Positions 21,491-61,505 of a DNA stretch of 64,000 nt are shown one piece after another. The notes below the pieces were generated by a model, which was given only the letters and a program-made list of their open reading frames with translations, did not search any database and was not told the DNA's origin. The position numbers and the translations under genes were made by a program. The stretch is taken from the NCBI GenBank assembly GCA_021852055.1, contig JAJZOD010000010.1, forward strand, positions 119,548 through 183,547, in the 5' to 3' direction. The DNA comes from Candidatus Micrarchaeota archaeon (lineage in GTDB: Archaea > Micrarchaeota > Micrarchaeia > Micrarchaeales > CABMGC01). Every line of letters begins with the position of its first letter. Within the stretch, counting starts at the first letter, position 1.

Positions 21491-21590
21491 CATGGAGTTT
21501 CAGCTTTCTGTGCGCAGCACTGTGGGTTCGCAAAAGTATAAGTAATTATTGTGTCAATATCATTCTTATCATTGTTTTGCGGTGATTTTT

Positions 21591-22556
21591 ATAGAAGGCA
21601 TAGAGTTATCTTGGACAGAGAAGTACAGGCCTTCTAAGCTTGACGATATAATAGGCCATGAAGGCATAGTAAGCAAGCTCCGCATTTTTGTAAAGCAGAA
21701 GAACTTCCCGAGCATGATATTCGCAGGGCCGGCGGGCGTGGGGAAGACAACATCTGCAATAGCCATGGCAAATGAGCTGTACGGGGAGAGTTTGAACCAG
21801 GCATTTCTTGAGCTTAACGCAAGCGACTCGCGGGGTATAGAGGTTGTAAGGGGCAAGGTAAAAGAGTTTGCGCGCACAGTGCCGCTCTCAAGCGGCCTTG
21901 TCAAGATAGTATTCCTTGATGAGGCGGATGCGCTTACACCCGAAGCACAGCATGCGCTTAGAAGAACAATGGAAAAGTACTCATCTACTACAAGATTCAT
22001 CCTTAGCGCAAACTACTCCAGCAAGATAATAGACCCAATACAGAGCAGGTGCGTTGTATTCCGCTTTAAGCCACTTCGGGAAGATGAGATGAGAAGGTGC
22101 ATAATGAGGATTGCAGAGTCCGAGGGCGTAAATATAGACGAAAAAGCCGTTGAAGCATTGATGTATGTCGGCGACGGAGACCTCAGGAAGCTGACAAATA
22201 TAATGCAGAGTTCTGCAGTTGCAGACGGAAAGATAAGCGAACACTCCATATACGACATTGCGGCAAGGGCGCGGCCCAAGGAGGTCATCTCAATGCTGAA
22301 ATATGCCATCTCTGGAGAGTTTGAGAAAGCAAGGAACGATCTAAATGTGCTGGTCCTAGTTCACGGAATGTCTGGAGAAGACGTTCTCATGCAGTGCTAC
22401 AGGGAGGCATTGAACCTTGACATAGAAGAGAGGAAAAAGCTGCGCATTATAGAGAGCATAGGCGAATGTAATTTCAGGATAGTCGAAGGTGCAAACGATC
22501 GCATACAGCTTGAATCGATGATTGCGAAACTAGCCTTAATTGATTCTAAGGGATGA
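21591..22556 (+). CDS. rfcS: Replication factor C small subunit (start ATA 21591 or GTG 21582)
   Basis: WTEKYRP, GPAGVGKT, ELNASDSRGI, LDEADAL and SRC motifs. Confidence 0.95.
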   Translation: MEGIELSWTEKYRPSKLDDIIGHEGIVSKLRIFVKQKNFPSMIFAGPAGVGKTTSAIAMANELYGESLNQAFLELNASDSRGIEVVRGKVKEFARTVPLSSGLVKIVFLDEADALTPEAQHALRRTMEKYSSTTRFILSANYSSKIIDPIQSRCVVFRFKPLREDEMRRCIMRIAESEGVNIDEKAVEALMYVGDGDLRKLTNIMQSSAVADGKISEHSIYDIAARARPKEVISMLKYAISGEFEKARNDLNVLVLVHGMSGEDVLMQCYREALNLDIEERKKLRIIESIGECNFRIVEGANDRIQLESMIAKLALIDSKG

Positions 22557-22609
22557 ACATACCCATCCCAAAAACATAAAACACAAAAGGACAGCTTTAG
22601 CCCGTCTGT

Positions 22610-24487
22610 TCACATCCTTCTTCTGGCTCTGCCATTCTCCCTTCCGCTGCTTCTCGGTTGATTGCTGAACTTGCTGATTTTTATAAGTTTGTTTATTCTT
22701 GCAAGCATTATAAGGATTATAATCAGAAATATCAACAACAGCACTGCGAATACTTCCAACTCTCCATGTATCCCAACTACGCTCACACCTAATGCCATTA
22801 TCTGTCGTGACTCGTTGTTGAACGCATCAGTAAGCAGAATACTCGATTCAGGCGTCGAACTCGACGTAACTGTTGAAGTACTGTTTCCAGGTATAAGGTT
22901 TTTAGAGATATAACCGTTTATTCCCGAAAGGTACGATGCCAGATTTGCAAGGGAGTATGCCGAACTTATGTAACCCATCTTAAGCGTTGAGTTCTTTGTG
23001 TAGTTTGCCTGCTGCAGGTAAAACATTGCAGAATCTGCAAACATGGCTGGCCATACACCATTGGTTGCATTGTACGCAACTCCAGCTATATGTGTCTGCA
23101 TAGCCGTGGAGTAGTTTGATGGACCTGCAGAAGCCAAAGCCTTTGCGTATGTTGCACCGTATAATGCTGCCGAATATTCGCCCTGGCTGTAGTCCTGCTT
23201 CGCTGCAGTAAGATATATGCCGGGATACTGCTCGGAGATGTTAATAATTTTCATAGCAGCATTCTTCATTGAAGAGGATTCATACACAGGTGAGCCGCCG
23301 ATCTCTGAGGCTATGTTGTACATCTCGTTTGCAGCGCTGCACCATGCCTGTGCCTCTGCCACGCTTCCCATAGCTTCAATTATGGTGTCGGTAGACGCAG
23401 AACTGTTTATTTCAGGAATAGATTCATTAAGTGTGGCTATTCCGAGGGACTGACGGAGTTCACCGCCAACTACATACTCGTAGTTTGCAGCAGTCAGCTG
23501 CGGAGGCGACAGCAGTGCACAGTAATCAGAAACATTTGTTGCGAGAGCAATTGCACTCTGCTTCGTGTATGAATTGGAGTGCGCAAGCGTATAAGAAGTT
23601 GCATATTCTACAAATGCAAGGTCAGCACCAGTATATAAATAACCTTTATCCGAAATAGTCGAGTATTGTTTGAGGTTGCTGAGCAGCTGGTCCTTTGCTG
23701 ATGTGAAGTTTGACGGTATCATCTCTGTTTCGTTAGTTACATATCCAAGTGTATAATTTGTAAGCTGGACGAAATAACTTTCATTGCAGTTTTTGCATTG
23801 GATTGATGAGTTGTGTATTGAAGTGTTGTAATACTGTGTTAGGTTTATTCTTAACATGCCTGGCGTCAGATGGCCTGAGGCTCTTGTGTAAGGGAGTGCC
23901 TGCGACAGATTGGACACCTCAAACAGCGGAATCCCGAACATCTGCTGTGATATGTAGTACAACAGGTCTTCTGTGCTTCCGTTCTGGACTGTTGGCACAA
24001 GTATGTAATTCATGCCGTTTTGCTTGGCTGCCTGGGCTTTGTCATATATGCCGCCTATCGGACCAACAGAGCCGTTGTTTGTTATAGTGCCGGTTACAGT
24101 AAAATTAGAATATAATTGGGCATTTTTAAGCGCGTAAACTGCAAGTAGGGTAAGTGCGAGACCGCCGCTTGGACCGGATACATTTACCGAGTTTTCTATG
24201 TAATATGTGAACTTGTATTTCGATTCGTTTAATCCTAGATATGATGCTGCTGCAATTGCAGCACTCTGTGCCGAAGCTATGGTGCTGCTTCCAACAACGC
24301 TGGGCCCTTTTATATCAACTGTGCCGTTGCCGCTTGTAATGTTGAGCTGTATGGTCGTGAGAACCCCTAGATCCTCGTTCTGCAAAACAGCAGGAGCGTG
24401 AATCTGCGTCGTGTATGCAAACGCAACTGAAGGAAGCGCTGCAAATAAAATTACAAATATGGCCAAGATGGTTTTTCTAGTCTCCAT
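22610..24487 (-). CDS. Secreted, C-terminally anchored S16 (Lon-like) serine protease
   Basis: Signal peptide, VSGPSGG catalytic Ser, GPIGGIYDKA Lys, and a C-terminal TM followed by a basic tail. Confidence 0.85.
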   Translation of the reverse strand: METRKTILAIFVILFAALPSVAFAYTTQIHAPAVLQNEDLGVLTTIQLNITSGNGTVDIKGPSVVGSSTIASAQSAAIAAASYLGLNESKYKFTYYIENSVNVSGPSGGLALTLLAVYALKNAQLYSNFTVTGTITNNGSVGPIGGIYDKAQAAKQNGMNYILVPTVQNGSTEDLLYYISQQMFGIPLFEVSNLSQALPYTRASGHLTPGMLRINLTQYYNTSIHNSSIQCKNCNESYFVQLTNYTLGYVTNETEMIPSNFTSAKDQLLSNLKQYSTISDKGYLYTGADLAFVEYATSYTLAHSNSYTKQSAIALATNVSDYCALLSPPQLTAANYEYVVGGELRQSLGIATLNESIPEINSSASTDTIIEAMGSVAEAQAWCSAANEMYNIASEIGGSPVYESSSMKNAAMKIINISEQYPGIYLTAAKQDYSQGEYSAALYGATYAKALASAGPSNYSTAMQTHIAGVAYNATNGVWPAMFADSAMFYLQQANYTKNSTLKMGYISSAYSLANLASYLSGINGYISKNLIPGNSTSTVTSSSTPESSILLTDAFNNESRQIMALGVSVVGIHGELEVFAVLLLIFLIIILIMLARINKLIKISKFSNQPRSSGRENGRARRRM

Positions 24488-24679
24488 ATTTTAAATATAA
24501 GATGCAAAGATTTAAATGATTTTAGTATAAATTCGCATTAGGTGCATTTTGCATTAATATTTGCATTGATTTTACAATATTTACAATAAATTTGATTAAT
24601 GGCCAAAAACAGATTTTGATTTTTTCTATTATCGCAAGTTTCTTAAGCTTTTACGGGTTTAATAATAGCAAGGACATAT

Positions 24680-25177
24680 ATGAACTTCAAAAATGGCAGA
24701 TTACAGGCTGCAGTCGAATATCTGTCAATGTATGGTTGGGCCATAATCATTGTGGCAATAGCAATACTTGCGCTTGCTGCACTTGGAGTCTTTAACCCAC
24801 AGGCATACGTAGGCCAGCAGTGCGCCATGGGTGGAGGATTCTCGTGTGTATCGTATTCAATGGCAGAGAACGGCATGCTGTTTATAACAATTGCGCAGTC
24901 GACCATATCGCCGATATTAGTCACCGGCGTAGGGTGTTATGCTAATTCAAACGACATGGAGCTGCAGGCGCCGTACAATCCGCCTTCTAATGAGATACCA
25001 ATGCAAATAGGAAGCAGCAGCAACTTTTCATCACAGTGCTATAACTACAACGGCACAAAATTTGGCGGAGGGATAGGTGCAGTTTACGAAGGGTCGATAG
25101 CCGTATCGTATATAAACACAGTCAAAGAATATAAAGAGCTTGGCGTAGGAACGCTGGTGGTAAGGGTTTCGCATTGA
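24680..25177 (+). CDS. Type IV pilin-like protein with class III signal peptide
   Basis: RL|QAAVEYLSMYGWAIIIVAIAILALAALGVFNP matches the Q..EY..YGWA archaeal pilin-like N-terminus. Cys pairs in the C-terminal domain. Confidence 0.75.
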   Translation: MNFKNGRLQAAVEYLSMYGWAIIIVAIAILALAALGVFNPQAYVGQQCAMGGGFSCVSYSMAENGMLFITIAQSTISPILVTGVGCYANSNDMELQAPYNPPSNEIPMQIGSSSNFSSQCYNYNGTKFGGGIGAVYEGSIAVSYINTVKEYKELGVGTLVVRVSH

Positions 25178-25216
25178 ATGATGTCTTGCAAGCATGAAAA
25201 ATAAAATGGCAGTTTT

Positions 25217-25816
25217 ATGTTTATATACCCAAAAATGTACAGAAAGCTGAAGCGCGGCCCTCAGGTTATACTTCCAAAGGATATAGGAATTATAGTAGCA
25301 TATTCTGGTATATGTAAGGAAAGTGTGTGCATCGATGCAGGCACCGGAAGCGGCTGGCTTGCTGTAAGCTTGGCGCGCATTTGCAAAGACGTTTACAGTT
25401 ATGATACAAGAGAGGAGTTCACGCGGATAGCACAGAAGAACAAAGAGATCGCTGGAGTCGATAACCTGAGCCTTAAAACAGGCGATGTTACAAAGCATAT
25501 AAAAGAGAAGAATGCAGACTTGTTTACTCTTGATCTGCCGGATGCAGAAAAGGCCCTTGCAACAGTTAAGAAATCTCTTAAGCAGGACGGCGTTGTAGCA
25601 GCATATCTCCCGCACACTGAACAGCTGAGCAGATTTGTTTCCAAATTAGAGAAACTCGGATTTTACGACGTATATACCGTAGAAGTTATAGTCAGGGATA
25701 TTCTTGTCAGGAAGGAGGGGGTACGCCCTTCTACAAAAGGAATATGGCATACTGCATATTTGGCATTCGGCAGGAAAGGCGGCAATTACGGAGATACGGC
25801 CCTTAAAACAGAATGA
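25217..25816 (+). CDS. trmI: tRNA (adenine-N1)-methyltransferase TrmI
   Basis: PQVILPKDIGII, IDAGTGSG, TLDLPDA and VRPST..WHTAYL. Confidence 0.88.
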   Translation: MFIYPKMYRKLKRGPQVILPKDIGIIVAYSGICKESVCIDAGTGSGWLAVSLARICKDVYSYDTREEFTRIAQKNKEIAGVDNLSLKTGDVTKHIKEKNADLFTLDLPDAEKALATVKKSLKQDGVVAAYLPHTEQLSRFVSKLEKLGFYDVYTVEVIVRDILVRKEGVRPSTKGIWHTAYLAFGRKGGNYGDTALKTE

Positions 25817-25939
25817 CGCCAACAAAGATTTATATTCATTTATGTATTTTATGTATAAGAGTTAATCAGTAAATGTTATAAAAATCTTCAAGACACAAAA
25901 CTATCACACTGAAAAATACAAAAAACACATGGTGTAAAT

Positions 25940-26257
25940 ATGGCAGAAAATATAGCAGACAATATCACAAGCAAAGGCGAAAGGGCGATAGGGGAGAATG
26001 TAGTTTTGATAGGTAAAAAGCCTGCTATGAACTATGTTCTTGCAGTTGTGACGCAGTTCAATGGCGGGGCTAAAAACGTCAAGGTAAGGGCAAGAGGCAA
26101 CGCAATCTCTAGAGCTGTTGATGTAGCAGAGATAGCAAGGCATAGGTTCGTCACTGATGCGCGGGTAGGAACCATAGAGATAGGATCCGAAGAACTGTCA
26201 AACGAGGATGGAACAACGTCGAAGGTTAGCTCTATCGAGATAACGCTAAGTAAATAG
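25940..26257 (+). CDS. albA: DNA/RNA-binding protein Alba
   Basis: [28 protein letters not shown] and SSIEITL. Confidence 0.96.
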
Positions 26258-26499
26258 TTCATTTTCTCTTTATTTTTCCTTTTTTATTATTTTAATCTTT
26301 TGGCTTTTCCTTTTTTCTTTGATTAGTTTGATTTTGCATTCTTCTATTCTGTAGCTAAAAATTTATTATTTGTTCTCTTGCATCTCCAGGCATAGGTGTC
26401 ATAGGTTGTTTTCATGACTATAAATGGTGGGAGTTGGCAAGCCTTCGGTACACGATAGCTATAAATAAGCCTTTTCATCCAATTAATACTGGTGCTTTA

Positions 26500-27798
26500 T
26501 TGTCAAATGAGTACAGGAGCCATTATATTTCAGAGCTCAGTGCCCAGCTTGCAGGAAAAGAGGTACGCCTTGCAGGCTGGATACACGAAGTAAGGGACAT
26601 AGGCAACATTGTGTTTCTGCTACTTAGAGACCATTCCGGTATAATACAAGTGACTGCGAAGAAAGACAGCACAGATGACGCAGTGATGAAGAGCATGCTT
26701 CTTCCCAAAGAAAGCGTAGTTTCAGTTCTGGGAACTGTTGTTGAGAGCAAGCAGTCAAAAAAAGGCATAGAGATAAAACCAAATTCCATACGAAACCTGA
26801 ATCCGCTTAATGCAACTATTCCTTTTGAGGTAACTGGCAAAGTGCCTGCAGACCTTGACGTAAGATTAAACTACAGGTATGTTGATCTGCGAAGGCTGCA
26901 CACAACAGCAATATTCAATATAGAATCAACAATACTAGGAAGTTTCAGAAGCATTCTTTCAAAGGACGGCTTTACAGAGATAAGGACGCCGTCGCTAGTC
27001 AAGGAGGCGACAGAGGGAGGTGCTGATGTATTTAAGGTTGATTATTTCGGAGATGCCGCATATCTTGCGCAGTCTCCGCAGCTTTACAAGCAGCTTGCGG
27101 TTATAGGCGGATTTGACAGAGTATTTATGGTAGTTCCCATATTCAGGGCAGAAAAACACAATACGACGTTCCACCTGAATGAGATAACGCAGATGGATAT
27201 AGAGATGGGATTTGCTGACCATAAAGATGCCATAAAAGTGCTAAAGAAGGTCGTATTAGGTATTAAAAAAAGTGTATTTAAGAACAACAGCGCAGATGCC
27301 GAAACGCTCGGAATAAAGGATTCAGAGGGCAGGATAGTTGAGGTCACATACAAAAAAGCAATCGAGAAACTTAACTCTAACGGCAGGCGCATAGAGTTTG
27401 GCGAGGACTTCACCAGAGAAGATGAAGCAGCGCTTAGCAGGATTTTCGGAGACCTTATTGTTTTAAAGGAATATCCTACAATGTTGAGGGCATTTTATAC
27501 AATGCCCAGCTCGGAGGATCCTGAAGTGTCCAACAGCTTCGATTTTATATACAAAGGCACTGAGATATGCAGCGGAGCGCAGCGCATACACGAACCGCAT
27601 GTTTTAGTAGATGCAATTAAAAAACGCGGCAGCGACCCGAAATCATTTGAATTCTACATAAATGCATTTAAAGACGGAGCACCGCCACATGCCGGCTGGT
27701 CCATCGGCCTTGAACGCTTTGCAATGAAGATGACAGGTATGGAGAATATACGTGAGGTATCGATGTTTCCACGTGACAGGACAAGGCTTACCCCGTGA
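26500..27798 (+). CDS. aspS: Aspartyl-tRNA synthetase (archaeal type)
   Basis: GWIHEVRDIG, RLNYRYVDLR, YLAQSPQLYKQ, EICSGAQRIH and PPHAGWSIGLER. TTG start after a GGTG SD. Confidence 0.93.
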   Translation: MSNEYRSHYISELSAQLAGKEVRLAGWIHEVRDIGNIVFLLLRDHSGIIQVTAKKDSTDDAVMKSMLLPKESVVSVLGTVVESKQSKKGIEIKPNSIRNLNPLNATIPFEVTGKVPADLDVRLNYRYVDLRRLHTTAIFNIESTILGSFRSILSKDGFTEIRTPSLVKEATEGGADVFKVDYFGDAAYLAQSPQLYKQLAVIGGFDRVFMVVPIFRAEKHNTTFHLNEITQMDIEMGFADHKDAIKVLKKVVLGIKKSVFKNNSADAETLGIKDSEGRIVEVTYKKAIEKLNSNGRRIEFGEDFTREDEAALSRIFGDLIVLKEYPTMLRAFYTMPSSEDPEVSNSFDFIYKGTEICSGAQRIHEPHVLVDAIKKRGSDPKSFEFYINAFKDGAPPHAGWSIGLERFAMKMTGMENIREVSMFPRDRTRLTP

Positions 27799-27802
27799 TT
27801 TT

Positions 27803-28285
27803 GTGAATACAGAAGTTATAAGGATAGAGAAAAAAGAGGAGGAACAAGTAGTCATAGGGCATGCAGGATTTATAAAATCTGCAGAAGACCTTTATGAAGC
27901 CATGGTTAACTCGGTGCCTGGAGTCAGGTTCGGACTTGCATTTGCAGAGGCAAGCGGACCCCGCCTTATCAGAAGCGAGGGCAACGATGATGCAATGATT
28001 AAATCTGCAGAGAGCAACATGCAACGCATAGGCGCAGGCCACACGTTTATAATAATCTTCAGCGCCGCATACCCGATCAATGTCATAAATTCGCTTAAGC
28101 AGGTAAACGAGGTTGCTAGGATATTCTGCGCCACTGCAAACGCTGTTGAAGTGATAGTTGCAGAAACAAACAGCAGCAGGGCTATCATAGGAGTCGCTGA
28201 CGGGATGCCACCCACAGGCATAGAAGACGATGAAGGCAGAAGCAAGAGAAGGAAGTTCCTGCGTGACATCGGATATAAGAAATAG
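27803..28285 (+). CDS. Adenosine-specific kinase family (DUF355)
   Basis: IGHAGFIKSAEDLYE, FGLAFAEASGPRLIR.EGND, GAGHTF, YPINV and RRKFLRDIGYK. Confidence 0.9.
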   Translation: MNTEVIRIEKKEEEQVVIGHAGFIKSAEDLYEAMVNSVPGVRFGLAFAEASGPRLIRSEGNDDAMIKSAESNMQRIGAGHTFIIIFSAAYPINVINSLKQVNEVARIFCATANAVEVIVAETNSSRAIIGVADGMPPTGIEDDEGRSKRRKFLRDIGYKK

Positions 28286-28294
28286 GGCGGTGCA

Positions 28295-30237: not shown

Positions 30238-30295
30238 TCCTGCAGCATTGTTGCATGTGAGTAATATTATTCAGCACTGTTGAATTTTACTTTGG

Positions 30296-30922: not shown

Positions 30923-30927
30923 CCCGA

Positions 30928-32310: not shown

Positions 32311-32315
32311 TTTAA

Positions 32316-34124: not shown

Positions 34125-34470
34125 TTTTTTTGCTTATATCTATGCCTATAGCTCTAAGTATCAGCCTGCGAAGCGTGTCTGGGGAGTGGCTGTCGCCATA
34201 CTCCGGCACTTCTATGAATATCGGAAGAAGGCTCGTATCAATGGCATTGAGGAGTCTCCTGTCCTTTATTCCGTTTGCAAGCCTTGATGAGATAACTATT
34301 ATCCCTATATCATCTTTCTGAAGCAGCTGCCGGATCTTGTCCTCTGCCTCTGCGGCGGTTTCCGCTATTATGGATTCGTGGACTCCTGCAAGCTTGAAGC
34401 CCAGCGCAAGCTCCTCGCCGCCAACCATGGCTATCCTGTATCCTTTGCCTTTGCTTAATTTGCCTTCCAA
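34114..34470 (-). CDS. atpF: A/V-type ATP synthase subunit F
   Basis: [17 protein letters not shown] and [13 protein letters not shown]. Confidence 0.92.
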
Positions 34471-35513
34471 ACCATCAACTCAGAAAGCTCGTCTTTGCCG
34501 AGACCATACGCCTTGCCCTTTACCAATATCCTCAGAGTAGACACCTCTATCTCTTTCAGATAGATGTAGGCTATTACAGAGCTAAGCGACAGCACGCTGT
34601 GCGAAAGCACCTTAAGTGCAGCACTGTGTATGCTGTTACGCATTGCTATCTCAAAAGTAACCAGCCTTTTGTTCTGGTTGTACCGCGCTATTGCATCCTT
34701 CAGCTCGAATGCATTTATGTTCTGGACCAGAGGCTCTACCCCTTCAGAGCTTGTATACGCTTTTTTCATATCTGCAATGGCTACTGCACCGCCATTTATA
34801 AGGCCGCCGGCTACTGCATCAAAATCTGCGCCTCTCCATTTTGCGCGTATGAGCGTAAGCATGTTTTTCATGTCTATCTCCATTTTTATTATCCTGCCTG
34901 CAGGCTCGCCTTTATTGTAGAACTGATGCAGCATGTCCTCCATTGATTTGTAGTATTCGGAGTCTATGGCAGCTATGGATTCTGAAACGTTTTTGTGCTC
35001 GTTGTAAACTGCAAGCGCCTTTGTCAAAACTTCAGAGCTTGGTGAGTTGTTTATAAAACGCTGCAGCATCCTCTCTGCCGAGTCTTCCTTCATTATGTCC
35101 TTTATTATTATGCGAGGATACCTTCCGTAATCTATAAGATAGCGCTCTATGTCTGCAAACCCTTTGCCCTCTGTCTTTGCCTCAAGCGCTAGCTTGACGT
35201 TGTGGAATGTCCACCTTTCCGCTATGCCTCTTATGGTGTGCTTGTCCTGATGTGGAGTGAGGCGGATTACTGCATCCATATCTTTTGCAAGATTGCCGCT
35301 CAGCGCAAAATCTATAAGCGACTGCTTGATCTCCACTCCGCCGAAATCAGACAGTGATTTTGAGTACTCCGTCTGCATGAGTAGAGAGAGAAGAGAGGCT
35401 ATGTCCTTAGATGAAGCTATTGACTGCACAGATGCATCGCTGAGAAGCCTTGCCTTTCTGGCCTTTACGCGGGTGTTAGAATAACCGTACTTTACTGCTG
35501 ATTTGTAGCCTAT
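34455..35513 (-). CDS. atpC: A/V-type ATP synthase subunit C (d); inferred ATA start
   Basis: The frame extends upstream of GTG 35429 through YGYSNTRVKARKARLL to a TGA. The only plausible starts are ATA 35513 (AGGTG SD 5 nt upstream) or ATA 35525. Confidence 0.88.
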   Translation of the reverse strand: MGYKSAVKYGYSNTRVKARKARLLSDASVQSIASSKDIASLLSLLMQTEYSKSLSDFGGVEIKQSLIDFALSGNLAKDMDAVIRLTPHQDKHTIRGIAERWTFHNVKLALEAKTEGKGFADIERYLIDYGRYPRIIIKDIMKEDSAERMLQRFINNSPSSEVLTKALAVYNEHKNVSESIAAIDSEYYKSMEDMLHQFYNKGEPAGRIIKMEIDMKNMLTLIRAKWRGADFDAVAGGLINGGAVAIADMKKAYTSSEGVEPLVQNINAFELKDAIARYNQNKRLVTFEIAMRNSIHSAALKVLSHSVLSLSSVIAYIYLKEIEVSTLRILVKGKAYGLGKDELSELMVWKAN

Positions 35514-35521
35514 TGAAACAC

Positions 35522-36085
35522 CTATTCACCGAAAAGACACTCTGATATCGCGCCTTTTATCTGATTTGCAGCATCTTCGGTTATGTCGTTGACATCAGCA
35601 TCGAGCCTTGCCTTTTTATCAGATGTATATATAATTACACCGCTTATGCTGTTGTTTACTACCTTCTTCCCATAGCCCTTCTTTAGCTTTTCTAGCACCT
35701 TGCCGCTGCCTTCTACAATTATATCGTCTTTTTGGGTCACTGTTGAGAAAAAGCGAAGGGCCTTTTCAGATATCTCACCGGTGTATGACTTTTCGAGCTC
35801 CTTCGCGACTGCCTTCTTGATTGCAGGGAGCTGCTTTGATACTACTTCTTCACGTGCTGACGCAAGCATGTTTCCAACCTCTACAGAGAGCTCCGCCTCT
35901 GCCTCTTTAAGCAGGGTTTCGCGCAGTGCTTTTGCACGCTCTGAGGCATTTTTGCGTATCTCTTCCGCACGCAGCCTTGCCTGTCCGATTATCTCCGCCT
36001 CCTGTCTTTTGGCACCATCTATGTTCTTCTGGGCTGCGACTGCAGCATCTGCATCTATAGCCTTCTTTATGTCAGAAAGACCCAC
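35522..36085 (-). CDS. atpE: A/V-type ATP synthase subunit E
   Basis: MGLSDI N-terminus, A/E/K-rich coiled coil, SGVIIYTSD and operon position. Confidence 0.85.
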   Translation of the reverse strand: MGLSDIKKAIDADAAVAAQKNIDGAKRQEAEIIGQARLRAEEIRKNASERAKALRETLLKEAEAELSVEVGNMLASAREEVVSKQLPAIKKAVAKELEKSYTGEISEKALRFFSTVTQKDDIIVEGSGKVLEKLKKGYGKKVVNNSISGVIIYTSDKKARLDADVNDITEDAANQIKGAISECLFGE

Positions 36086-40476: not shown

Positions 40477-41304
40477 CTACTTTTTGATATTTCTGCCTAC
40501 TGATTTTGCAACGCTGCGCAGATCATCCATCAACTCGGCAAATTCTTCTATGCTGAGTTGCTGCTCTTTGTCGCTAAGCGCTTTTTCAGGATTGTTGTGG
40601 ACTTCTATCTCGAGCATATCTGCCCCTGCGGCTACTGCTGCGAGGGCCATCGGCTTTACAAATTCACGCCTGCCGGCAGAATGGCTCGGGTCTACAGCCA
40701 CAGGCAGGTGCGACATCAGCTGCGACAGCGCTATAGAACCTATGTCCATTGAGAACCTTGTTGCACCCTCTATGCTGCGCGCACCGCGATAACAGAGCAC
40801 TACATCTTTATTGCCTGCGCTTAGTATGTATTCTGAGGACATAAGCCACTCGTTCACTGTTGTGCCTAGACCGTTTTTCAGGAGCACGGGTACGTGTTGC
40901 TCTCCCAGCCGTTTAAGCATGTCAAAGTTCTGTGAATTCCTTGCACCGACCTGTATCATGTCTACCTTCCCTGCATAGAGTTTAGTAAGCGTAATGTCAG
41001 TAAGCTCCGTAACGACAGGCATGCCAGTCATATTGCGTGCTTTTTCTAGCAGGCGTATTCCTTCAATGCCAAGACCTTGAAAAGAGTATGGAGAGCTTCT
41101 GGGTTTGAATGCACCTCCGCGCAGCATTGAAGCGCCATTTTTTGCAACACCATTGGCAGTCTCGAGAAGCTGCTCCTCGCTTTCTACAGAACATGGCCCT
41201 GCAGCTATTATTATATCTCTGCCGCCTATCTTTACTCCGGAAACATCAACTACTGTATCGGATTTTTTGTACTTCCTTGAAAAATGGTATGTCTTTTGGT
41301 CTAT
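40477..41304 (-). CDS. aroF: DAHP synthase class I-beta (catalytic barrel only); inferred ATA start
   Basis: GGAFKPRSSPYSFQG, QVGARNSQN and VDPSHSAG. The frame extends 59 codons above ATG 41127 through IAAGPCSVES to ATA 41304, which overlaps the GNAT stop as ATAG. Confidence 0.88.
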   Translation of the reverse strand: MDQKTYHFSRKYKKSDTVVDVSGVKIGGRDIIIAAGPCSVESEEQLLETANGVAKNGASMLRGGAFKPRSSPYSFQGLGIEGIRLLEKARNMTGMPVVTELTDITLTKLYAGKVDMIQVGARNSQNFDMLKRLGEQHVPVLLKNGLGTTVNEWLMSSEYILSAGNKDVVLCYRGARSIEGATRFSMDIGSIALSQLMSHLPVAVDPSHSAGRREFVKPMALAAVAAGADMLEIEVHNNPEKALSDKEQQLSIEEFAELMDDLRSVAKSVGRNIKK

Positions 41305-41618
41305 GCAATCATCTCGTTGAATTCACTGTGCTTTTCCAAAAAATGCGTTATGTAAGGGCAGTCAGGCCTTATCTTTAAGCCCTTCTTCTTTGCAAGATCG
41401 AATGCAGCATATGCCATCTTCTCGGCTATGCCCTTGCCGCGCTCTGCATCAGGCACGAATGTGTGGAATATTGACATGACGTTGCCGTTTACCTTATATA
41501 GCAGCTCGGCATCTCCATTCGGGGTCGATATGGATATCCGCTCAACCGCACCTCTTGCGCCTGCACCGGTTTTTATCTCGCATGCAGGCTTATCTTCTTT
41601 TGCAGTTTCGCTTTCCAT
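41301..41618 (-). CDS. GNAT-family N-acetyltransferase (YjdJ-like)
   Basis: SIFHTFVPDAERGKGIAEKM and IRPDCPYI. Confidence 0.88.
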   Translation of the reverse strand: MESETAKEDKPACEIKTGAGARGAVERISISTPNGDAELLYKVNGNVMSIFHTFVPDAERGKGIAEKMAYAAFDLAKKKGLKIRPDCPYITHFLEKHSEFNEMIA

Positions 41619-52517: not shown

Positions 52518-52772
52518 CTGATCGCCCACTATCTAAACTATGGACATATTTATATATCTTACGTTAGTGCCTATTATAGTGGAATTCTTATTACTGAAGT
52601 AAATCAATTTTACTTAAGTATCAGGTATAGACCTTTTATACAACAATCCCGCAGTATTATTTCATGAAAAATTTGCGTAATTATCGCGCACCTATTGCAC
52701 TGAATGCAGGATTTGAAGGCGGCAGATGCCCTTTGTAGCTGTAGAGCAGGAATAATCTGATTATTTGCAACT

Positions 52773-54569: not shown

Positions 54570-54619
54570 ACAAACGTATTTAAGTATGCATCTGGTAATA
54601 GATTTGAGTAGGTAAGAAA

Positions 54620-55885: not shown

Positions 55886-57382
55886 ATGGATCTTAAAAAC
55901 GATGTAATCGGAAGTTACGAGTTCAATGTCAAGGGCTTGAAGATTAACGTTCAGATAGCTAATTCCGGTGACTTTGTTCCATCCTACAAAATCACCTTCC
56001 CAGGTATAGGAGAGGCGACGCGGGTTTTGCTGCTTTCGCTGAGGTCTGAGCTTCTGTCGCTTGTGCCGATAGACCAGATACGTATATCCGACCAGCGATA
56101 TGCAGAGGAACTCGAGAGGAACTATGAAAACGCAGCCGTACCCATACTTGAAAAGTACCTGCCGGGAACATCGCCTGAAACTATGAAAACGCTTATAGCG
56201 TATATGGTAAACATGCTGCTGGGCCTTGGTGATATAGAGGTTCTTGTAAATGACGAGAACCTTGAAGAGATAGCAGTGAACAATGCTTCAGATCCTGTCT
56301 GGGTCTTCCATAAGATACACGGTTGGTGCAAGACAAACATAAAGATGAGCGACGAAGAGACGATATACCAGACGAGCGAGCAGATAGGCAGGAGGGTAGG
56401 CAGGGAGATAAGCAATCTTGTTCCAATGATGGATGCCGAGCTGCCTGACGGCTCTAGGGTAAACGCAACCCTATTCCCTATATCGCAGAGAGGAAACACC
56501 ATAACAATAAGAAAGTTCGCCAAAAACCCGTGGAGCATGCCTGCACTGATATCCAATAAGACCATAACAAGCGAGATAGCAAGCATCATATGGCTGGCCA
56601 TACAGAACGAGATCAGCATGCTTATCTCCGGAGGAACTGCAAGCGGAAAAACCAGCTTCCTTAATGCCATGAGTATTTTTATGCCTGCAAACAGGCGCAT
56701 AATATCAGTAGAGGAAACAAGAGAGCTGACGCTGCCTGCATTCCTGCAGTGGCTGCCTATGCAGACAAGGCAGGCTAACCCTGAAGGGAAAGGTGAGGTC
56801 ACGCTTTACGACTTAATGATAAACGCCCTGAGGCAGAGGCCTGACATAATGCTCATAGGAGAGATAAGGGTGAAAAGCGATGCAGAAACACTATTCGAGG
56901 CAATACACACCGGACACGCAGTCTACGGCACTGTGCATGCAGACAGCGCTCATGATACCATAATAAGGATGACAAACCCTCCGATAAGCATACCAAAGAT
57001 ACTTATGAATTCAATAGGTGCAGTTACCTCGCTTTTTAGGCACAGGAGGTTAGGCATCAGGAGGCTGTTCGAATTTAGCGAGGTTACCAATGATGGCGAC
57101 GTCTCAGTAGTAAAAAGGTGGAATATGAGGAGCGACACTTTCGTTGACGGCGCAGAAATATCCAGGCTAGCGCAGACAATATCGCTGTATGGAGGCTACA
57201 GCCAGATCGAGATAAAACAGGAGATTGAAGAAAAGAGCATTATACTGGATTGGATGGTAAGGAACAAGGTGTTTGATGTTGACATGTGTGGCAATATAGT
57301 CGCAAATTACTATAGAAACAAGGACAGGATAGTCGAGCTGGCAAAAAGCAACACCCCTTACTCGAAGGACATTTTATCTTAG
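55886..57382 (+). CDS. Type IV pilus/type II-IV secretion ATPase (CpaF/VirB11/ArlI-like)
   Basis: DAELPDGSRVNAT, TIRKF, SGGTASGKTS, SVEETREL, ALRQRPD...GEIR and TGHAVYGTVHA. Confidence 0.92.
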   Translation: MDLKNDVIGSYEFNVKGLKINVQIANSGDFVPSYKITFPGIGEATRVLLLSLRSELLSLVPIDQIRISDQRYAEELERNYENAAVPILEKYLPGTSPETMKTLIAYMVNMLLGLGDIEVLVNDENLEEIAVNNASDPVWVFHKIHGWCKTNIKMSDEETIYQTSEQIGRRVGREISNLVPMMDAELPDGSRVNATLFPISQRGNTITIRKFAKNPWSMPALISNKTITSEIASIIWLAIQNEISMLISGGTASGKTSFLNAMSIFMPANRRIISVEETRELTLPAFLQWLPMQTRQANPEGKGEVTLYDLMINALRQRPDIMLIGEIRVKSDAETLFEAIHTGHAVYGTVHADSAHDTIIRMTNPPISIPKILMNSIGAVTSLFRHRRLGIRRLFEFSEVTNDGDVSVVKRWNMRSDTFVDGAEISRLAQTISLYGGYSQIEIKQEIEEKSIILDWMVRNKVFDVDMCGNIVANYYRNKDRIVELAKSNTPYSKDILS

Positions 57383-57405
57383 ATTTCATTTCTGGGTTAC
57401 TTTAT

Positions 57406-57990
57406 ATGGAGATGGATGCTGATTACAAAAAGGCTGTCGAAGTGCTTAATTCTCTCTCTGACAACAGCACAGAAGATGCAGAGTTAGATGTGGATAAGAT
57501 AATGTCAGAGCAGCAGATCGAATTAGAATATGATTACGATAAAGCAGTTGGGTATTTTGTAGATATGTCATCTCCTGCACGGGGCCCTGCACAGCAGTCG
57601 CAGCTTCAAGCACTGAGTAGGATGCAGAGCGCAAAGGAGTTTTCTGAGGATATAGGAAAGGCAGAACACGAGCTAAGTACAATGCTCGAGAAATTAAGCA
57701 AGTCAACAGGAAGGATTTCCTCGGCTGTAGAGGATATCGTGCTGAAGAATGCGCCAGGCTCAGTTCTTGTGTCGCTTTCAGTGCAGGATCAGATAGCAGA
57801 ACTTGAAAGGATAAGCCTTGGGCTTGAAGAGGGGGTATTTGACAAGCAGCGGACTGGTATAATAATCAATGAAGTGCGGCACCTTAGCAGAAGCGTAAAA
57901 AAAACCAAACCAGGAGACACAAATGACGACCTTGTTGGCCTAAGAAACAGGCGCCTTGACGAAGTAATGCGCAAACTTCACATGGCATGA
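57406..57990 (+). CDS. Hypothetical helical protein downstream of the secretion ATPase
   Basis: Long ORF with typical composition, co-oriented, 23 bp after the ATPase. Confidence 0.7.
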   Translation: MEMDADYKKAVEVLNSLSDNSTEDAELDVDKIMSEQQIELEYDYDKAVGYFVDMSSPARGPAQQSQLQALSRMQSAKEFSEDIGKAEHELSTMLEKLSKSTGRISSAVEDIVLKNAPGSVLVSLSVQDQIAELERISLGLEEGVFDKQRTGIIINEVRHLSRSVKKTKPGDTNDDLVGLRNRRLDEVMRKLHMA

Positions 57991-58047
57991 TTTAGTTGCC
58001 ACACAGGCATGCACAGGTATTTATCTTTTGCAAGTCTTATTATTGCC

Positions 58048-58989
58048 ATGGAGTACGTAAGGCTTGGAAAAACCGATGACACCATTCCTGTGATAGGAAT
58101 GGGCACATGGAAGCTTGGCGCAGATAAGGAGGGCACTATAGAAGCTATACGCTACGGCATAGGATTAGGAATGTCTTTTGTAGATACCGCAGAGATGTAC
58201 GCCAATGAAGAAATTGTCGGGAAAGCAATACAAAATGAGGATGTATTCATAGGCACAAAGGTCTCGCCCAGCCATTTCCGCGAAAATGAAGTTCTCAGGG
58301 CATGCGATGCCAGCCTTGGAAGACTTGGCGTAAAGGCTGTTGACTTGTACCAGCTTCACTGGCCAAATTCCCGAGTGACGATAAAGGAAACTATGCGGGC
58401 CATGGAAAAACTGGTTGACCAGGGCAAGATACGACACATCGGCGTAAGCAACTTCAATCTGAAGGAGCTTCGCGCAGCGCAGGATGCCATGAAAAAACAT
58501 GAGATAGTATCAAACCAGATAGAATACAGCGTCCTTGTAAGGGATTTCGGAGATGCACTGTCAGATTACTGCAAGAAAAACGGAATTACAATAATAGCTT
58601 ACAGCCCATTTGGCAGCGGGGCGTTTTTTGATGAGAGGTATGGCAACGTACATGTGATTCTTGATGACATATCCAAGAAGCATGGCAAAACTGCAGGTCA
58701 GGTTGCGCTCAACTGGCTTATATCGAAAGGCAACATATCGGCAATACCGAAAGCCGGCAGGCTTGACCATGTAGAGGAGAATGCAGGAGCAACCGGATGG
58801 AAGCTCAGCCCGGATGAGATAAAAACTATAGATAGCTTAGGCCAGTCAAAAACACCAATAGCTGGAAGACTTAATGCATTTACTAAAAGAACAGCACCAT
58901 TCTGGTCCGGAATCATGACAAGAATAGAACATAAGCGCATTAAATCAGGAGAGGAAGAAAAGGATGAAAATATCATGAAGCGGCAATAA
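58048..58989 (+). CDS. Aldo/keto reductase
   Basis: IGMGTW, VDTAEMY, IGTKV, DLYQLHWP, IGVSNF and AYSPFG. Confidence 0.93.
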   Translation: MEYVRLGKTDDTIPVIGMGTWKLGADKEGTIEAIRYGIGLGMSFVDTAEMYANEEIVGKAIQNEDVFIGTKVSPSHFRENEVLRACDASLGRLGVKAVDLYQLHWPNSRVTIKETMRAMEKLVDQGKIRHIGVSNFNLKELRAAQDAMKKHEIVSNQIEYSVLVRDFGDALSDYCKKNGITIIAYSPFGSGAFFDERYGNVHVILDDISKKHGKTAGQVALNWLISKGNISAIPKAGRLDHVEENAGATGWKLSPDEIKTIDSLGQSKTPIAGRLNAFTKRTAPFWSGIMTRIEHKRIKSGEEEKDENIMKRQ

Positions 58990-59030
58990 TAATTAAAAGC
59001 TTTCCAGTAATATGTAAAACCGGCGATCAG

Positions 59031-59780
59031 TTGAAATTATCTGTAAAAGTCATTGTTTATCTTGTTGCTATAATAGTAATATTCACATTTGGCGTAGGAG
59101 GGACATACATTTTAGGGCACTATGAAAGCAATTTTAACGTAAAAATAAATTCCCTGCTCGATGCAGCGTACTTCACAATAATAACACTTACAACAGTAGG
59201 ATACGGAGATATTTACCCAGTAACAGCAGTTGGAAAGATATTTGTAATGATACTTGTAGTGGCTGGCCTTGGCACTGTGCTTAGCGCCATCACTGTATTC
59301 TCAAGTGATATCGTGAACAATAGATTGGATAAGCTTTCGGGCAAGATAACGAATTTGGAGAGAAGGTTCCTTAGGAACCATATAGTGCTTGTAGGCACAG
59401 ATGTTGTAAATATGCATATAGCAAAGAGGTTGAAAGAGAACAGGGCAAGATTTATCATAGTAACTTATGACAAGGATATGGCAGAGCAGCTGCGCGACCA
59501 GGGATACAGTGCATATGTAGCGGACGAAACAAACGAGAGGGAGATGCAGAAGTTTGAACTGAATAAGGCAAAATCAATAATTGTGGACATGCACGAAAAG
59601 TCGAAGATAGTATACGCTATACTCATAATAAGGAACCTTGCGAGAGATGCCAAGGTTACAGCAATAGTCCATAGTGAAGAGGAGGAAAGAAACGTAATGA
59701 GCCTGCATGCAAGGATAAGCGTTATGAACCCGTCAGAGATAGCATCGCAGATGCTGTCTAAAAGGATAACCAAAGATTAG
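59031..59780 (+). CDS. Two-TM potassium channel with RCK/TrkA-N domain
   Basis: TLTTVGYGD selectivity filter and a NHIVLVG Rossmann-like domain. Confidence 0.92.
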   Translation: MKLSVKVIVYLVAIIVIFTFGVGGTYILGHYESNFNVKINSLLDAAYFTIITLTTVGYGDIYPVTAVGKIFVMILVVAGLGTVLSAITVFSSDIVNNRLDKLSGKITNLERRFLRNHIVLVGTDVVNMHIAKRLKENRARFIIVTYDKDMAEQLRDQGYSAYVADETNEREMQKFELNKAKSIIVDMHEKSKIVYAILIIRNLARDAKVTAIVHSEEEERNVMSLHARISVMNPSEIASQMLSKRITKD

Positions 59781-59795
59781 ATATGGCGCATAAGC

Positions 59796-60428
59796 TTGAA
59801 AACTAGAATACTCCGGCTGCACAAAGGCATGGCAGCGTATAGAATTATAAAAACAGCAGCTGACACAATATGCAAAGGCGGCGTGCTCGTCTTTCCAACA
59901 GAAACGGTGTATGGCATAGGCACCAATGCCCTTGACAGAAAAGCATGCGAGAAGGTGTACAGGATAAAAGGAAGAGAGAGAAGCAAGGCACTTATAGTAC
60001 TTGTCTCTGATATGAATATGCTTGACAGGATAGCTTTTGTACCTGAAAAGTACAGAAAGATTCTGGAAGATGTTTGGCCTGCGCCGCTTACTGTAATCTT
60101 AAAGGCAAGAGCCGCAGTGCCTAAAAGAGTTACGGCAGGGAAGGGGACAGTGGCAGTCAGAATGCCTGACAACGCAACTTTACTATCCATAATAAGAGCT
60201 GCACACGTGCCGATAGTTGCCCCAAGTGCAAATCCCTCAGGCCTGACTCCTGCGAGGACGGGCTTCGAAGCGAAGAGATATTTTGACGGGAAGGTTGACG
60301 CCATAATAGATTCCGGCAGGAAGGGCTGCGGCGTGCCGTCTACCATTATGAGAATTCCAAGCATGCGCGTTATAAGGCAGGGAGCATTTACAGAAAAGCA
60401 GATAAAAAAAGCATTCGGGAGCCGTTGA
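59796..60428 (+). CDS. tsaC: L-threonylcarbamoyladenylate synthase (YrdC/TsaC-length)
   Basis: FPTETVYGIG, IKGR, WPAPLTVIL, VAVRMP, APSAN.SG and STIM. No Sua5 C-terminal domain. Confidence 0.92.
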   Translation: MKTRILRLHKGMAAYRIIKTAADTICKGGVLVFPTETVYGIGTNALDRKACEKVYRIKGRERSKALIVLVSDMNMLDRIAFVPEKYRKILEDVWPAPLTVILKARAAVPKRVTAGKGTVAVRMPDNATLLSIIRAAHVPIVAPSANPSGLTPARTGFEAKRYFDGKVDAIIDSGRKGCGVPSTIMRIPSMRVIRQGAFTEKQIKKAFGSR

Positions 60429-60507
60429 GCACACCTGAATCAGCCTTTTCTTAACTTCCGGAATTATGTTTGGATTTGAACCGCTGTTTTGCAATTGTTT
60501 TTTGTAA
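60411..60507 (+). repeat. Degenerate direct repeat, copy 1 (includes tsaC 3' end)
   Basis: GCATTCGGGAGCCGTTGA...GCCTTTTCTTAACTTCC...GATTTGAACCGCTGTTTTGCAATTGTTTTTTGTAA. Confidence 0.75.
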
Positions 60508-60749
60508 GTTCCGCTTTTCTGTTTCCTCCCGTTGGTTTCAAGCTTCATTCAGTAAAAGTACATATTTCATAAAATCAGATAACTAATTGGAGTTTTATGG
60601 TGGACGACCTAAAATCGTGTCGAAAAGGGTCATTTTACTCCCAACGTCACCTTTTCATGTAGAGTTGCGTTCCATATTTATAAGAGTACCCAGGACAACG
60701 AAGCAAAACATTTTATACCTGTGGCTGCCATATATCTAAAGGAATAGAC

Positions 60750-60974
60750 ATGAAGATGGAAATATATGGATTCAAGGCAGATGTTCACAAAGATGGAAAG
60801 TGGTTCATAGGGGTAATTGATGAATTGCACGTTCAAGATCAGGCTAAAAGCCTCCGTGAACTTGAGAGCGAACTGAAGGACGCGGTAGATACGGTTGTCG
60901 AATTTCTACTGGAAAAGAACAACCGCAAGGAAATGAAGTCGCCTATACTAAGAAGTTTAATCACTAGGAGCTAG
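60750..60974 (+). CDS. hicB: HicB-like antitoxin (N-terminal domain only)
   Basis: VHKDGKWFIG.IDELHVQDQAKSLRELESELKDAV. Confidence 0.78.
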   Translation: MKMEIYGFKADVHKDGKWFIGVIDELHVQDQAKSLRELESELKDAVDTVVEFLLEKNNRKEMKSPILRSLITRS

Positions 60975-60982
60975 GTGATTTT

Positions 60983-61207
60983 ATAGGTGCGCTCAGACCC
61001 GCGAAACCACTCAAATTGCTTAAGATACTGCAAGAGCACTATGGATTCTCTGCAAGGCAAGGGAAAGGTGATCATATTGTCCTGTGGGATGAAAAGGAGC
61101 ACCATACAGTGATTCAGATATCCCAGAAAGAACTAAGACAACAAATAGTGAATAGAATACTGAGGCAAACTGGCCTGAAATGGGAAGACATTGAAAAGTA
61201 TCTATAA
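60983..61207 (+). CDS. hicA: HicA-like mRNase toxin; inferred ATA start
   Basis: (M)GALRPAKPLKLLKILQEHYGF..RQGKGDHIVL...IL.QTGL, in the context GGTGATTTT-ATA. Confidence 0.82.
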   Translation: MGALRPAKPLKLLKILQEHYGFSARQGKGDHIVLWDEKEHHTVIQISQKELRQQIVNRILRQTGLKWEDIEKYL

Positions 61208-61241
61208 ATGGGCAGATGACGGCAGTAATGAGGCTGCTTAA

Positions 61242-61505
61242 ATTAAACATAAAATATCGTGTGCAATCTGCGAGTTAAAGGGCTATGTAGAAGTTGATGA
61301 TAAAACACGCAAGATAATCGGAAAGGATTGGTACTATTATGGGAAAACGAATATGAATTACAAGAAAACTGATAGATATTTTCATAAGTTTATTAGTTGG
61401 AAACCTGAGTTCATAACTGAAAAGATAGCAAATAAGGAATACGATAAAGATGCAAAGCCAAGACTTGTAGAGCATTGGGAATGTAGCACGTGTTTTAAAG
61501 CGTAG
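61242..61505 (+). CDS. Unannotated 87-aa protein with terminal CxxC pairs; ATT/ATA start or frameshifted
   Basis: IKHKISCAICELKGYVEVDD...VEHWECSTCFKA*. The first in-frame ATG lies after the N-terminal CxxC. Confidence 0.55.
   Translation: MKHKISCAICELKGYVEVDDKTRKIIGKDWYYYGKTNMNYKKTDRYFHKFISWKPEFITEKIANKEYDKDAKPRLVEHWECSTCFKA

Follow-up and report, generated by a model that had tools for sequence, protein, structure and literature searches.

Probable near-cognate AUA and AUU start codons behind Shine-Dalgarno sequences in a Micrarchaeota genome

The 64,000-nucleotide stretch of Candidatus Micrarchaeota DNA analysed here (the window) spans positions 119548-183547 of contig 13 of a metagenome-derived genome, G000 (GenBank assembly GCA_021852055.1, contig JAJZOD010000010.1). 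Five of its genes, encoding the replication factor C small subunit (RFC-S), A-type ATP synthase subunit C (AtpC), a type I-beta DAHP synthase, a HicA toxin and a Zn-ribbon-like protein, have reading frames that seem to open at ATA or ATT. Together with rnhB, the gene for RNase HII, which lies outside the window, they probably start at near-cognate AUA, AUU or AUC codons whose use depends on a Shine-Dalgarno (SD) sequence. For AtpC, DAHP synthase and RNase HII there is no canonical start available. Comparison with relatives suggests that the change from ATG to ATA was recent in this species in the SD-led atpC, DAHP synthase and RFC-S genes, and that the ATA of hicA travels with its toxin-antitoxin module. 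The near-cognate start of rnhB, by contrast, appears to be ancient, kept across an order (most likely Micrarchaeales) while drifting among ATA, ATC and ATT. The use of these codons for initiation, the nature of the first residue and a low efficiency of initiation are inferences.

The genome comprises 1.02 Mb in 14 contigs, is about 90% complete and has a G+C content of 43-46%; its relatives have genomes of 0.6-1.1 Mb. Its DNA is seen in metagenomes from mine drainage, tailings and sediment. The 3' end of the 16S rRNA reads GGATAGATCACCTCG, from which an SD consensus of GAGGTGATC follows, the tail portion GATCACCTC being complementary to the SD. In a set of 957 genes predicted with a crude custom gene finder, 195 combine a canonical start with an SD match of at least 5 nucleotides (nt). 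These SD-led genes start at ATG (148, or 76%), TTG (30) or GTG (17), and the commonest spacing, 4 nt after the A of GGTGA, is found in 123 of the 195. The non-canonical starts likewise sit at a spacing of 4-5, with weak SDs in two cases: that of the DAHP synthase gene has one mismatch, and that of the Zn-ribbon ORF (open reading frame) consists of GAGG only.

Five candidate start sites in the window

The predicted coding sequences, their SDs and one alternative start codon are as follows, in window coordinates.

21581..21586, forward strand: RFC-S SD, GGTGAT, the A of GGTGA being followed by 5 nt (TTTTT) and then ATA 21591
21591..22556, forward strand: RFC-S coding sequence as predicted from ATA 21591, 321 codons plus stop, based on ortholog alignment
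34455..35513, reverse strand: atpC coding sequence as predicted from ATA 35513-35511, 352 codons plus stop, based on PF01992 and orthologs
35519..35523, reverse strand: atpC SD, AGGTG, 5 nt (TTTCA) before ATA 35513, complementary to 16S GATCACCTC
35523..35525, reverse strand: alternative in-frame atpC ATA, overlapping the atpE stop (ATAG), directly after TGA 35528-35526
40477..41304, reverse strand: DAHP synthase coding sequence as predicted from ATA 41304-41302, 275 codons plus stop, based on PF00793 and orthologs
41308..41315, reverse strand: degenerate SD GAGATGAT, one mismatch to GAGGTGAT, within the 3' end of a GNAT gene
60973..60979, forward strand: hicA SD, AGGTGAT, the A of GGTGA being followed by 4 nt (TTTT) and then ATA 60983
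60983..61207, forward strand: HicA toxin coding sequence as predicted from ATA 60983, 74 codons plus stop, based on ortholog alignment
61242..61505, forward strand: Zn-ribbon-like ORF as predicted from ATT 61242, 87 amino acids, CxxC at residues 7-10 and 81-84

An earlier note on this DNA had picked out these five ATA and ATT codons as start codons. All five sites are present as it described when the window sequence is read again, and in the ortholog comparison each codon falls in the column of the ATG, GTG or TTG start of relatives (for the Zn-ribbon ORF, of one ortholog). On this comparative evidence, all five genes most likely start where the note placed them.

The atpC frame is closed upstream by TGA 35528-35526 and then reads ATA GGT GTT TCA ATA GGC TAC AAA. 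Its first canonical codon, GTG 35429, lies 32 codons downstream and is the start of the public gene call (324 amino acids); the Pfam vATP-synt_AC39 (PF01992) match begins 16 residues before it (residue 17 versus residue 33). From ATA 35513 to the K/M-Y-G-Y motif is seven codons, the same distance as from the ATG, TTG or GTG starts of relatives G001, G003, G006 and G018, and 'ATA GGC TAC' aligns with 'ATG GGT TAC' of G018. All 19 relatives compared (19/19) have an in-frame ATG, TTG or GTG in the start region. The upstream stop, on the same strand, is 8 nt away from the ATA; our script scored the SD as a 5-nt run at spacing 4. The other in-frame ATA, at 35525, aligns with 'ATG GGT GTT' of G002; we prefer ATA 35513 and judge ATA 35525 the less likely start because GGTGA abuts it without spacing. 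The gene has one match in the genome, and its ATA is unchanged in four independent assemblies. An ATA at SD+4 also occurs in the atpC genes of G012 (L016; 'GGTGATCTA ATA AAG GCT AGG ACT TTG TAT GGA') and G024 (L009; 'GGTGATTGA ATA GTG CTC'), in each case with a canonical codon 1-5 codons 3' of the ATA; further ATA starts are possible there.

In the DAHP synthase gene, TGA 41325-41323 closes the frame upstream and the first canonical codon is ATG 41127. The AGPCSVES block is encoded upstream of this ATG, the Pfam DAHP_synth_1 (PF00793) match begins 41 residues before it (residue 25 versus residue 66), and the public gene call is 216 amino acids long. The candidate ATA overlaps the TAG of the upstream GNAT gene as ATAG. 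Its context, 'GATTGC ATA GAC CAA AAG ACA TAC CAT TTT TCA AGG', aligns with 'GATTGC ATG GCT GAA GAG GTT TAC AGA TTT TCC AGG' of G010, and five orthologs besides G010 also have ATG at the start. An NCBI record of a sister strain (MCL5008586.1) annotates the same ATA as the start of a 275-residue DAHP synthase, and the codon is unchanged in independent assemblies. Between the A of GATGA and the ATA lie 4 nt (TTGC), and the script matched 7 of 9 SD positions at spacing 4; the GATGA variant also precedes canonical atpC starts in G015, G022 and G037. The leader holds, in addition, an in-frame ATT at 41322 that the earlier note did not mention. A second gene of the DAHP synthase family, 40% identical to the window copy, lies just upstream of the window (G000:C13:117119-117916, forward strand; L029) and may be a KDO8P-synthase-like paralog or a second isozyme.

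For RFC-S, 'ATA GAA GGC ATA GAG TTA TCT TGG' aligns with 'ATG GAA GGA ATA GAG CTC TCC TGG' of G004, and the start column holds ATG in 17 of 22 relatives and TTG or GTG in the others. The script scored the SD as 6 nt at spacing 5. The start is about 100 nt from the upstream gene, the ATA is unchanged in three assemblies, and the only second match in the genome is 30% identical. About 45 nt before the SD, at window positions 21533-21546, AAAAGTATAAGTAA resembles an archaeal BRE/TATA element by eye; if it is one, an in-frame TTG at 21549 would lie upstream of the transcript start.

The hicA SD directly follows the hicB stop (TAG 60972-60974) and was scored as 7 nt at spacing 4; the ATA is 8 nt after the upstream stop, and an in-frame TAG at 60965-60967 closes the frame. 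AGGTGA followed after 4 nt by 'ATA GGY GY' is kept in G002, G026 and G035, and G034 has ATG at the same position. Pfam coordinates are not decisive on the start for either RFC-S or HicA. The contig of run X9 is about 5% divergent over hicA and retains the ATA. In this contig and in a low-depth X1 contig, window position 60975 is changed from G to A, which turns the GGTGA of the hicA SD into GATGA, the form found before DAHP synthase here and before the atpC starts of G015, G022 and G037, with ATA 60983 kept.

The Zn-ribbon ORF opens at ATT 61242 directly 3' of TAA 61239-61241, 34 nt after the upstream gene, and its N-terminal CxxC precedes the first ATG. It has no Pfam match and few homologs. 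In G037 the counterpart likewise follows a HicA-like gene, and its 'ATG ATA CAT AAA ATA CGT TGT' corresponds to 'ATT AAA CAT AAA ATA TCG TGT' in G000. Many contigs from several metagenomes break or branch between window positions 61175 and 61245, from the 3' end of hicA to this ORF, with several alternative continuations. This branching, and the recurrence of the HicA-like/Zn-ribbon order in G037, suggests a mobile or variable toxin-antitoxin cassette.

Could the bases themselves be wrong? A true ATG, or an indel hiding a canonical start, would remove the need for unusual initiation, and a metagenome assembly of 14 contigs and about 90% completeness, in which a single G-to-A change yields each ATA, invites the question. 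We compared the window at all sites, at the level of contig consensus, with contigs assembled independently from four runs of three studies (mine drainage, sediment, tailings). No ATA or ATT codon shows a change or an indel. Single-nucleotide polymorphisms are many elsewhere, so the contigs are not copies of one assembly. The sister-strain record for DAHP synthase also carries ATA, and the rnhB pattern described below occurs in dozens of independently assembled genomes. At contig-consensus level the bases at the five sites are thus genuine, and we regard assembly or sequencing error as extremely improbable.

The rnhB start across the order

RNase HII, encoded at G000:C1:13841-14554 on the forward strand (L031:1501-2214), was added by a genome-wide screen for coding leaders. 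The start of the gene reads TGA TCC GGT GAT GCA ATA ATA ATT GCC GGT GGG GAC GAG GCC GGT CGT GGT, with the TGA closing the frame four codons before the ATA and the ATA lying 12 nt after a PRC-barrel gene. The catalytic DEAGRG motif is found 16 codons before the first GTG. The Pfam RNase HII match begins 19 residues before the first canonical codon (residue 8 versus residue 27) and spans this motif. RNase HII has one match in the genome. The public call of 212 amino acids is without DEAGRG, and the entries of many relatives are likewise cut, to 215-221 amino acids. NCBI records for some relatives annotate an ATT or ATC start of rnhB, giving 'MLIAGGDEAGRG'.

We compared the 5' regions of rnhB in 59 genomes of the order, from three families, and in 20 genomes from other families of the class. 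In 31 of the 59 in-order genomes the stretch from the upstream stop to DEAGRG holds no in-frame ATG, GTG or TTG; a further 18 have only GTG or TTG, mostly a GTG inside the SD, and nine have ATG. An SD followed after 4-5 nt by ATA, ATC or ATT, six codons before the catalytic Asp, is present in 43 of the 59. The codon at this spacing is ATA in 19 genomes, ATC in 12, ATT in 12 and ATG in one. Six in-order genomes in which the script detected no SD core start rnhB at ATG. Outside the order, ATG is found in 16 of 20 genomes, mostly without an SD, and two genomes (G044 and G068) have an SD with ATA. Within genera g21 and g11 the start alternates between ATG and ATA/ATC/ATT. The near-cognate start of rnhB thus goes closely with the presence of an SD, and Fisher tests, uncorrected for shared ancestry, give strong significance.

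The sequence upstream of rnhB is far less constant than the start itself. The stop codon varies among relatives (TGA, TAG, TAA, TAA-TAA), and the PRC-barrel gene occurs in varying frames and at varying distances, so read-through or a frameshift fusion does not explain rnhB. In G069 and G087 the SD and ATC/ATT even stand behind AT-rich sequence that is without the C-terminal motif of the usual PRC-barrel gene. An SD with ATG is almost absent at rnhB, though it is one mutation away and ATG makes up 76% of SD-led starts genome-wide. We take this as a sign that rnhB carries a selected weak start, one that would hold RNase HII output low.

The earlier note had proposed that selection of start codons may be relaxed in this lineage. 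The order-wide rnhB start supports tolerance of near-cognate starts at the level of the lineage. The ATA codons of AtpC, DAHP synthase and RFC-S are confined to this species; relatives have ATG at these positions or, in RFC-S and AtpC, some TTG or GTG.

The initiation machinery and the genetic code appear ordinary. The initiator-type tRNA gene (C10:10941-11015) has A1:U72, three G-C pairs in the anticodon stem and the anticodon CAU. The aIF1 family, PF01253, is present in 39 of 41 genomes. The initiator tRNA and aIF1 had been named in the earlier note as worth inspecting; the anticodon is unchanged and aIF1 is not lost, and we rejected both an altered initiator anticodon and loss of aIF1 as explanations. 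ATA is the main Ile codon of the genome (57.6 per 1000 codons, or 5.8%; ATT 14.9, ATC 10.2), and ATG stands at 23.9 per 1000. ARAGORN, run on G000 with introns allowed, found only one CAU tRNA and no tRNA-Ile(UAU), despite this frequency of ATA; the AUA-reading tRNA-Ile and the elongator tRNA-Met are absent from the assembled contigs or have escaped detection because of unusual introns. If ATA had been reassigned to Met, or the initiator tRNA altered so as to make ATA cognate, the high frequency of ATA and the two tRNA genes that ARAGORN did not find would fall into place. Such abundance is, equally, hard to square with reassignment, as is the alternation of ATA with ATT and ATC at internal conserved Ile positions in the rnhB and RFC-S alignments, and drift of the rnhB start among ATA, ATT and ATC fits no single cognate anticodon. 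Judged by these alignments, ATA is still Ile inside genes and the code is unchanged. With the initiator anticodon being CAU, we find reassignment scarcely credible.

How then might such starts work? We propose that the SD (GAGGTGATC) pairs with the 3' end of the 16S rRNA and anchors the 30S subunit, and that this pairing would put the codon 4-5 nt downstream into the P site. There the ordinary CAU initiator tRNA would pair with the A and the U, the mismatch at the third base being tolerated, and the product would presumably begin with Met. The free interchange of ATA, ATC and ATT points to a mismatch at the third base and not to a new cognate reading. Translational coupling to the upstream gene may assist, because five of the six genes start at most 35 nt after a same-strand gene; RFC-S, about 100 nt away, indicates that it would not be required.

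Frequency in the genome and alternative explanations

Genome-wide scans of G000 for an SD followed by ATA, ATT or ATC returned no statistical excess. All codons were tallied by spacing behind GGTGA, behind more permissive SD sets, behind SD matches of at least 5 and at least 6 nt, and behind orphan SDs, those lacking a canonical start in the vicinity. In these counts ATG, TTG and GTG peak at spacing 4-5. The controls are inflated by in-frame GGT-GAN-ATA inside genes and by the second and third codons of real genes. Given the frequency of ATA, many SDs will have one nearby by chance, and motif counts are poor evidence by themselves; in the absence of enrichment, support comes from homology and not from motif statistics.

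For each of the 957 genes, the leader screen took the open sequence that precedes the first canonical codon and ranked it by length and codon-usage score. It returned AtpC, DAHP synthase and RNase HII as solid genes, along with gene fragments (rfbD-like, methyltransferase and tnpB). Leads such as KsgA, FtsY, GDP-mannose dehydratase and AtpK were rejected, their ATG starts being fine. An Mrp-like ATPase gene of G000, examined separately, has ATG as well. The sensitivity of the screen is only about one third, because an in-frame canonical codon occurs every 20 codons on average; two of the five window cases were recovered. About six to seven genes among some 957 are without a usable canonical start, and a rough extrapolation gives 10-20 genes, or about 1-2% of all and perhaps 5-10% of those that are SD-led. 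The window, which was selected for that reason, seems richer in such starts than the rest of the genome, and sporadic near-cognate cases in the same genes look rare in relatives. The suggestion in the earlier note that the proteomes of this lineage are systematically mis-annotated was, at these numbers and with no SD-linked excess, overstated.

Other genes that came to light may have different explanations. The Pfam domain of a second HicA (G000:C14, reverse strand, frame opening at 77243) begins 17 residues before the first ATG. Loss of 2 nt from a (TA)n run would bring an upstream, out-of-frame 'ATG CCT AAG ATT CTT ATA TAG' into frame and yield the typical MPKIL N-terminus, and the gene looks frameshifted or dependent on slippage rather than started at ATA. 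A LeuA/CimA-like gene of 530 amino acids (G000:C11:93831-95420, forward strand; L155) has no canonical start before DTTLRDG. It could start at ATC 93843, an ATT or a CTG; another candidate is an SD-led TTG in the +1 frame, from which slippage on an A7 run (A AAA AAA) could restore the frame. This run is identical in two independent assemblies, and the gene has no close ortholog in 30 relatives. Three short ORFs (C2, reverse strand, about 92558; C8, reverse strand, about 12574; C13:90448, forward strand), of 143, 142 and 106 codons, are parts of an RfbD-like reductase, a SAM methyltransferase and the N-terminus of a TnpB/OrfB transposase. They have conserved sequence before the first canonical codon and look like gene fragments or pseudogenes.

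Several observations weigh against near-cognate initiation as the common explanation. ATA, ATT and ATC are not enriched at SD+4 or SD+5 relative to other spacings or codons in the genome, and the case is carried by a handful of genes. Two other G000 genes without a canonical start, the second HicA and the LeuA/CimA-like gene, have a plausible frameshift explanation. In RFC-S an in-frame GTG at 21582, three codons upstream of the ATA, is used in public calls (324 amino acids); the frame also holds the upstream TTG 21549, and no stop closes it just upstream. The Pfam HicA match begins only at an in-frame TTG, 61016, and Pfam alone leaves that start possible. The SD before DAHP synthase is degenerate (GAGATGAT). 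Least well supported of the five is the Zn-ribbon ORF, which has only GAGG (61230-61233) for an SD and a single informative ortholog. Finally, the association between SD and start codon in rnhB (Fisher p = 4e-5, 1e-22 and 3e-7) comes from tests that ignore shared ancestry.

These points give most room to a mixed reading, in which AtpC, DAHP synthase and RNase HII use ATA, RFC-S starts at GTG 21582 and HicA at TTG 61016, and the Zn-ribbon ORF starts elsewhere or is not a gene. The in-frame GTG and TTG exist, and the Zn-ribbon ORF has no family match. Counter to this, GTG 21582 is part of the RFC-S SD and has no SD of its own, and in 22 relatives the start codon falls in the column of the ATA. 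For HicA, G026 and G035 keep the SD and the ATA without a downstream TTG, and G034 has ATG at the position of the ATA. The N-terminal CxxC of the Zn-ribbon ORF stands before the first ATG, and G037 has ATG where G000 has ATT. We consider this combination unlikely, and rank it above the two explanations that would do away with near-cognate starts altogether.

One of these is that the genes are pseudogenes, or that their proteins are N-terminally truncated and begin at the next ATG, GTG or TTG, as the public calls for AtpC, DAHP synthase and RNase HII assume. Reduced genomes under drift gather defective genes, and the rfbD-like, methyltransferase and tnpB fragments are clear examples in G000. 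Truncated products would, though, lose the DEAGRG of RNase HII, the AGPCS block of DAHP synthase and the conserved N-terminus of AtpC. The frames are intact over their full length, and the segments upstream of the canonical codons score as coding and recur, conserved, in relatives. A second match in the genome is absent for AtpC and RNase HII and only distant for RFC-S, and the rnhB arrangement persists across the order. We hold decay or truncation to be very unlikely. A slightly smaller chance still attaches to recoding, with the N-terminus supplied from another frame or from the upstream gene through programmed frameshifting, transcriptional slippage or stop read-through. The PRC-barrel gene of G000 is in frame with rnhB with a single TGA between them, the DAHP synthase ATA overlaps the upstream stop, and the second HicA and the LeuA/CimA-like gene look like frameshift cases. 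Arguing against recoding in the genes considered here, the stop, frame and distance upstream of rnhB vary in relatives, no slippery run lies between out-of-frame canonical codons and the five window genes, the ATG of orthologs is exactly at the position of the ATA or ATT, and the assemblies have no indels. Initiation at the near-cognate codons themselves thus remains the reading we favour.

Known near-cognate starts and consequences for annotation

SD-dependent initiation at near-cognate codons is known in bacteria and, as far as we can judge, barely documented in archaea. In Escherichia coli, infC and pcnB start at AUU behind an SD. Bacterial AUU, AUA and AUC starts can be long conserved in a specific gene, are thought to set a low or regulated output and are missed by gene finders. 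The starts described here resemble them in being third-base variants of AUG at normal SD spacing and, in the case of rnhB, in their long conservation. Unlike the situation in E. coli infC, the machinery is archaeal (aIF1/aIF1A/aIF2 and unformylated Met-tRNAi) and does not involve IF3, and unlike the fixed AUU of the bacterial genes the rnhB codon drifts freely among ATA, ATC and ATT. We know of no role for RNase HII in initiation, and of no autoregulatory logic.

Termination-reinitiation coupling at overlapping stop and start codons such as ATGA occurs in both archaea and bacteria. The overlap of the DAHP synthase ATA with TAG (ATAG) is similar, and AtpC, rnhB and HicA start 8-12 nt after the upstream stop. 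The difference is that the start codon is non-canonical here, and that RFC-S lies about 100 nt from the upstream gene.

A literature search for ATA or ATT starts in Micrarchaeota or in archaea returned nothing specific and no paper describing the phenomenon. A 2020 review gives AUG, GUG and UUG as the only archaeal start codons (PMC7531240), a set that does not accommodate genes that need AUA, AUU or AUC. The SD-led architecture and the spacing match those of the Pyrococcus abyssi model mRNA GGAGGUGAUUUAAAUG (PMC6237735). In ribosome profiling of Haloferax volcanii, near-cognate codons accounted for about 30% of putative alternative initiation sites, which the authors left out of consideration because they might be false positives (Gelsinger et al. 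2020, PMC7261190). Those data indicate that archaeal ribosomes are able to initiate at near-cognate codons. The H. volcanii sites are alternative or novel ones whose conservation was not shown, whereas here the near-cognate codons appear to be the sole starts of conserved housekeeping genes.

The premise of the earlier note that gene callers accept only ATG, GTG and TTG is correct for the public calls that truncate AtpC, DAHP synthase and RNase HII. It does not extend to all NCBI records, which, using the alternative starts of NCBI table 11, already annotate ATA in the DAHP synthase of the sister strain and ATT in the rnhB of a relative. These are homology-based annotation decisions and not described biology, and other public calls truncate the same genes. 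Callers limited to ATG, GTG and TTG have been used to annotate most genomes of uncultured archaea. In the present case such calling deprives the public proteins of the RNase HII catalytic motif and of conserved N-terminal blocks in AtpC and DAHP synthase. Truncation of this kind can pass for gene decay or pathway loss in DPANN archaea, and alignments and structure predictions suffer from it. Few genes are affected, about 1-2% by our rough estimate.

If near-cognate initiation is confirmed, it would follow that the archaeal aIF1/aIF2 system can initiate physiologically at third-base near-cognates on SD-anchored mRNAs, and these genes would offer natural substrates for tests of start-codon fidelity by toeprinting, cryo-electron microscopy and reporters. 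A bolder possibility, to which we give somewhat less than even weight, is that AUA, AUC and AUU are regular weak starts of the archaeal, eukaryote-like initiation system in this order, used only behind an SD. In that case the rnhB start would be an attenuator selected since the origin of the order, with the change from ATG to ATA tolerated even in essential genes such as those for AtpC and RFC-S. A few percent of SD-led genes would then be truncated in standard metagenome proteomes, and third-base discrimination by aIF1/aIF2 would be relaxed on SD-anchored mRNAs in this lineage.

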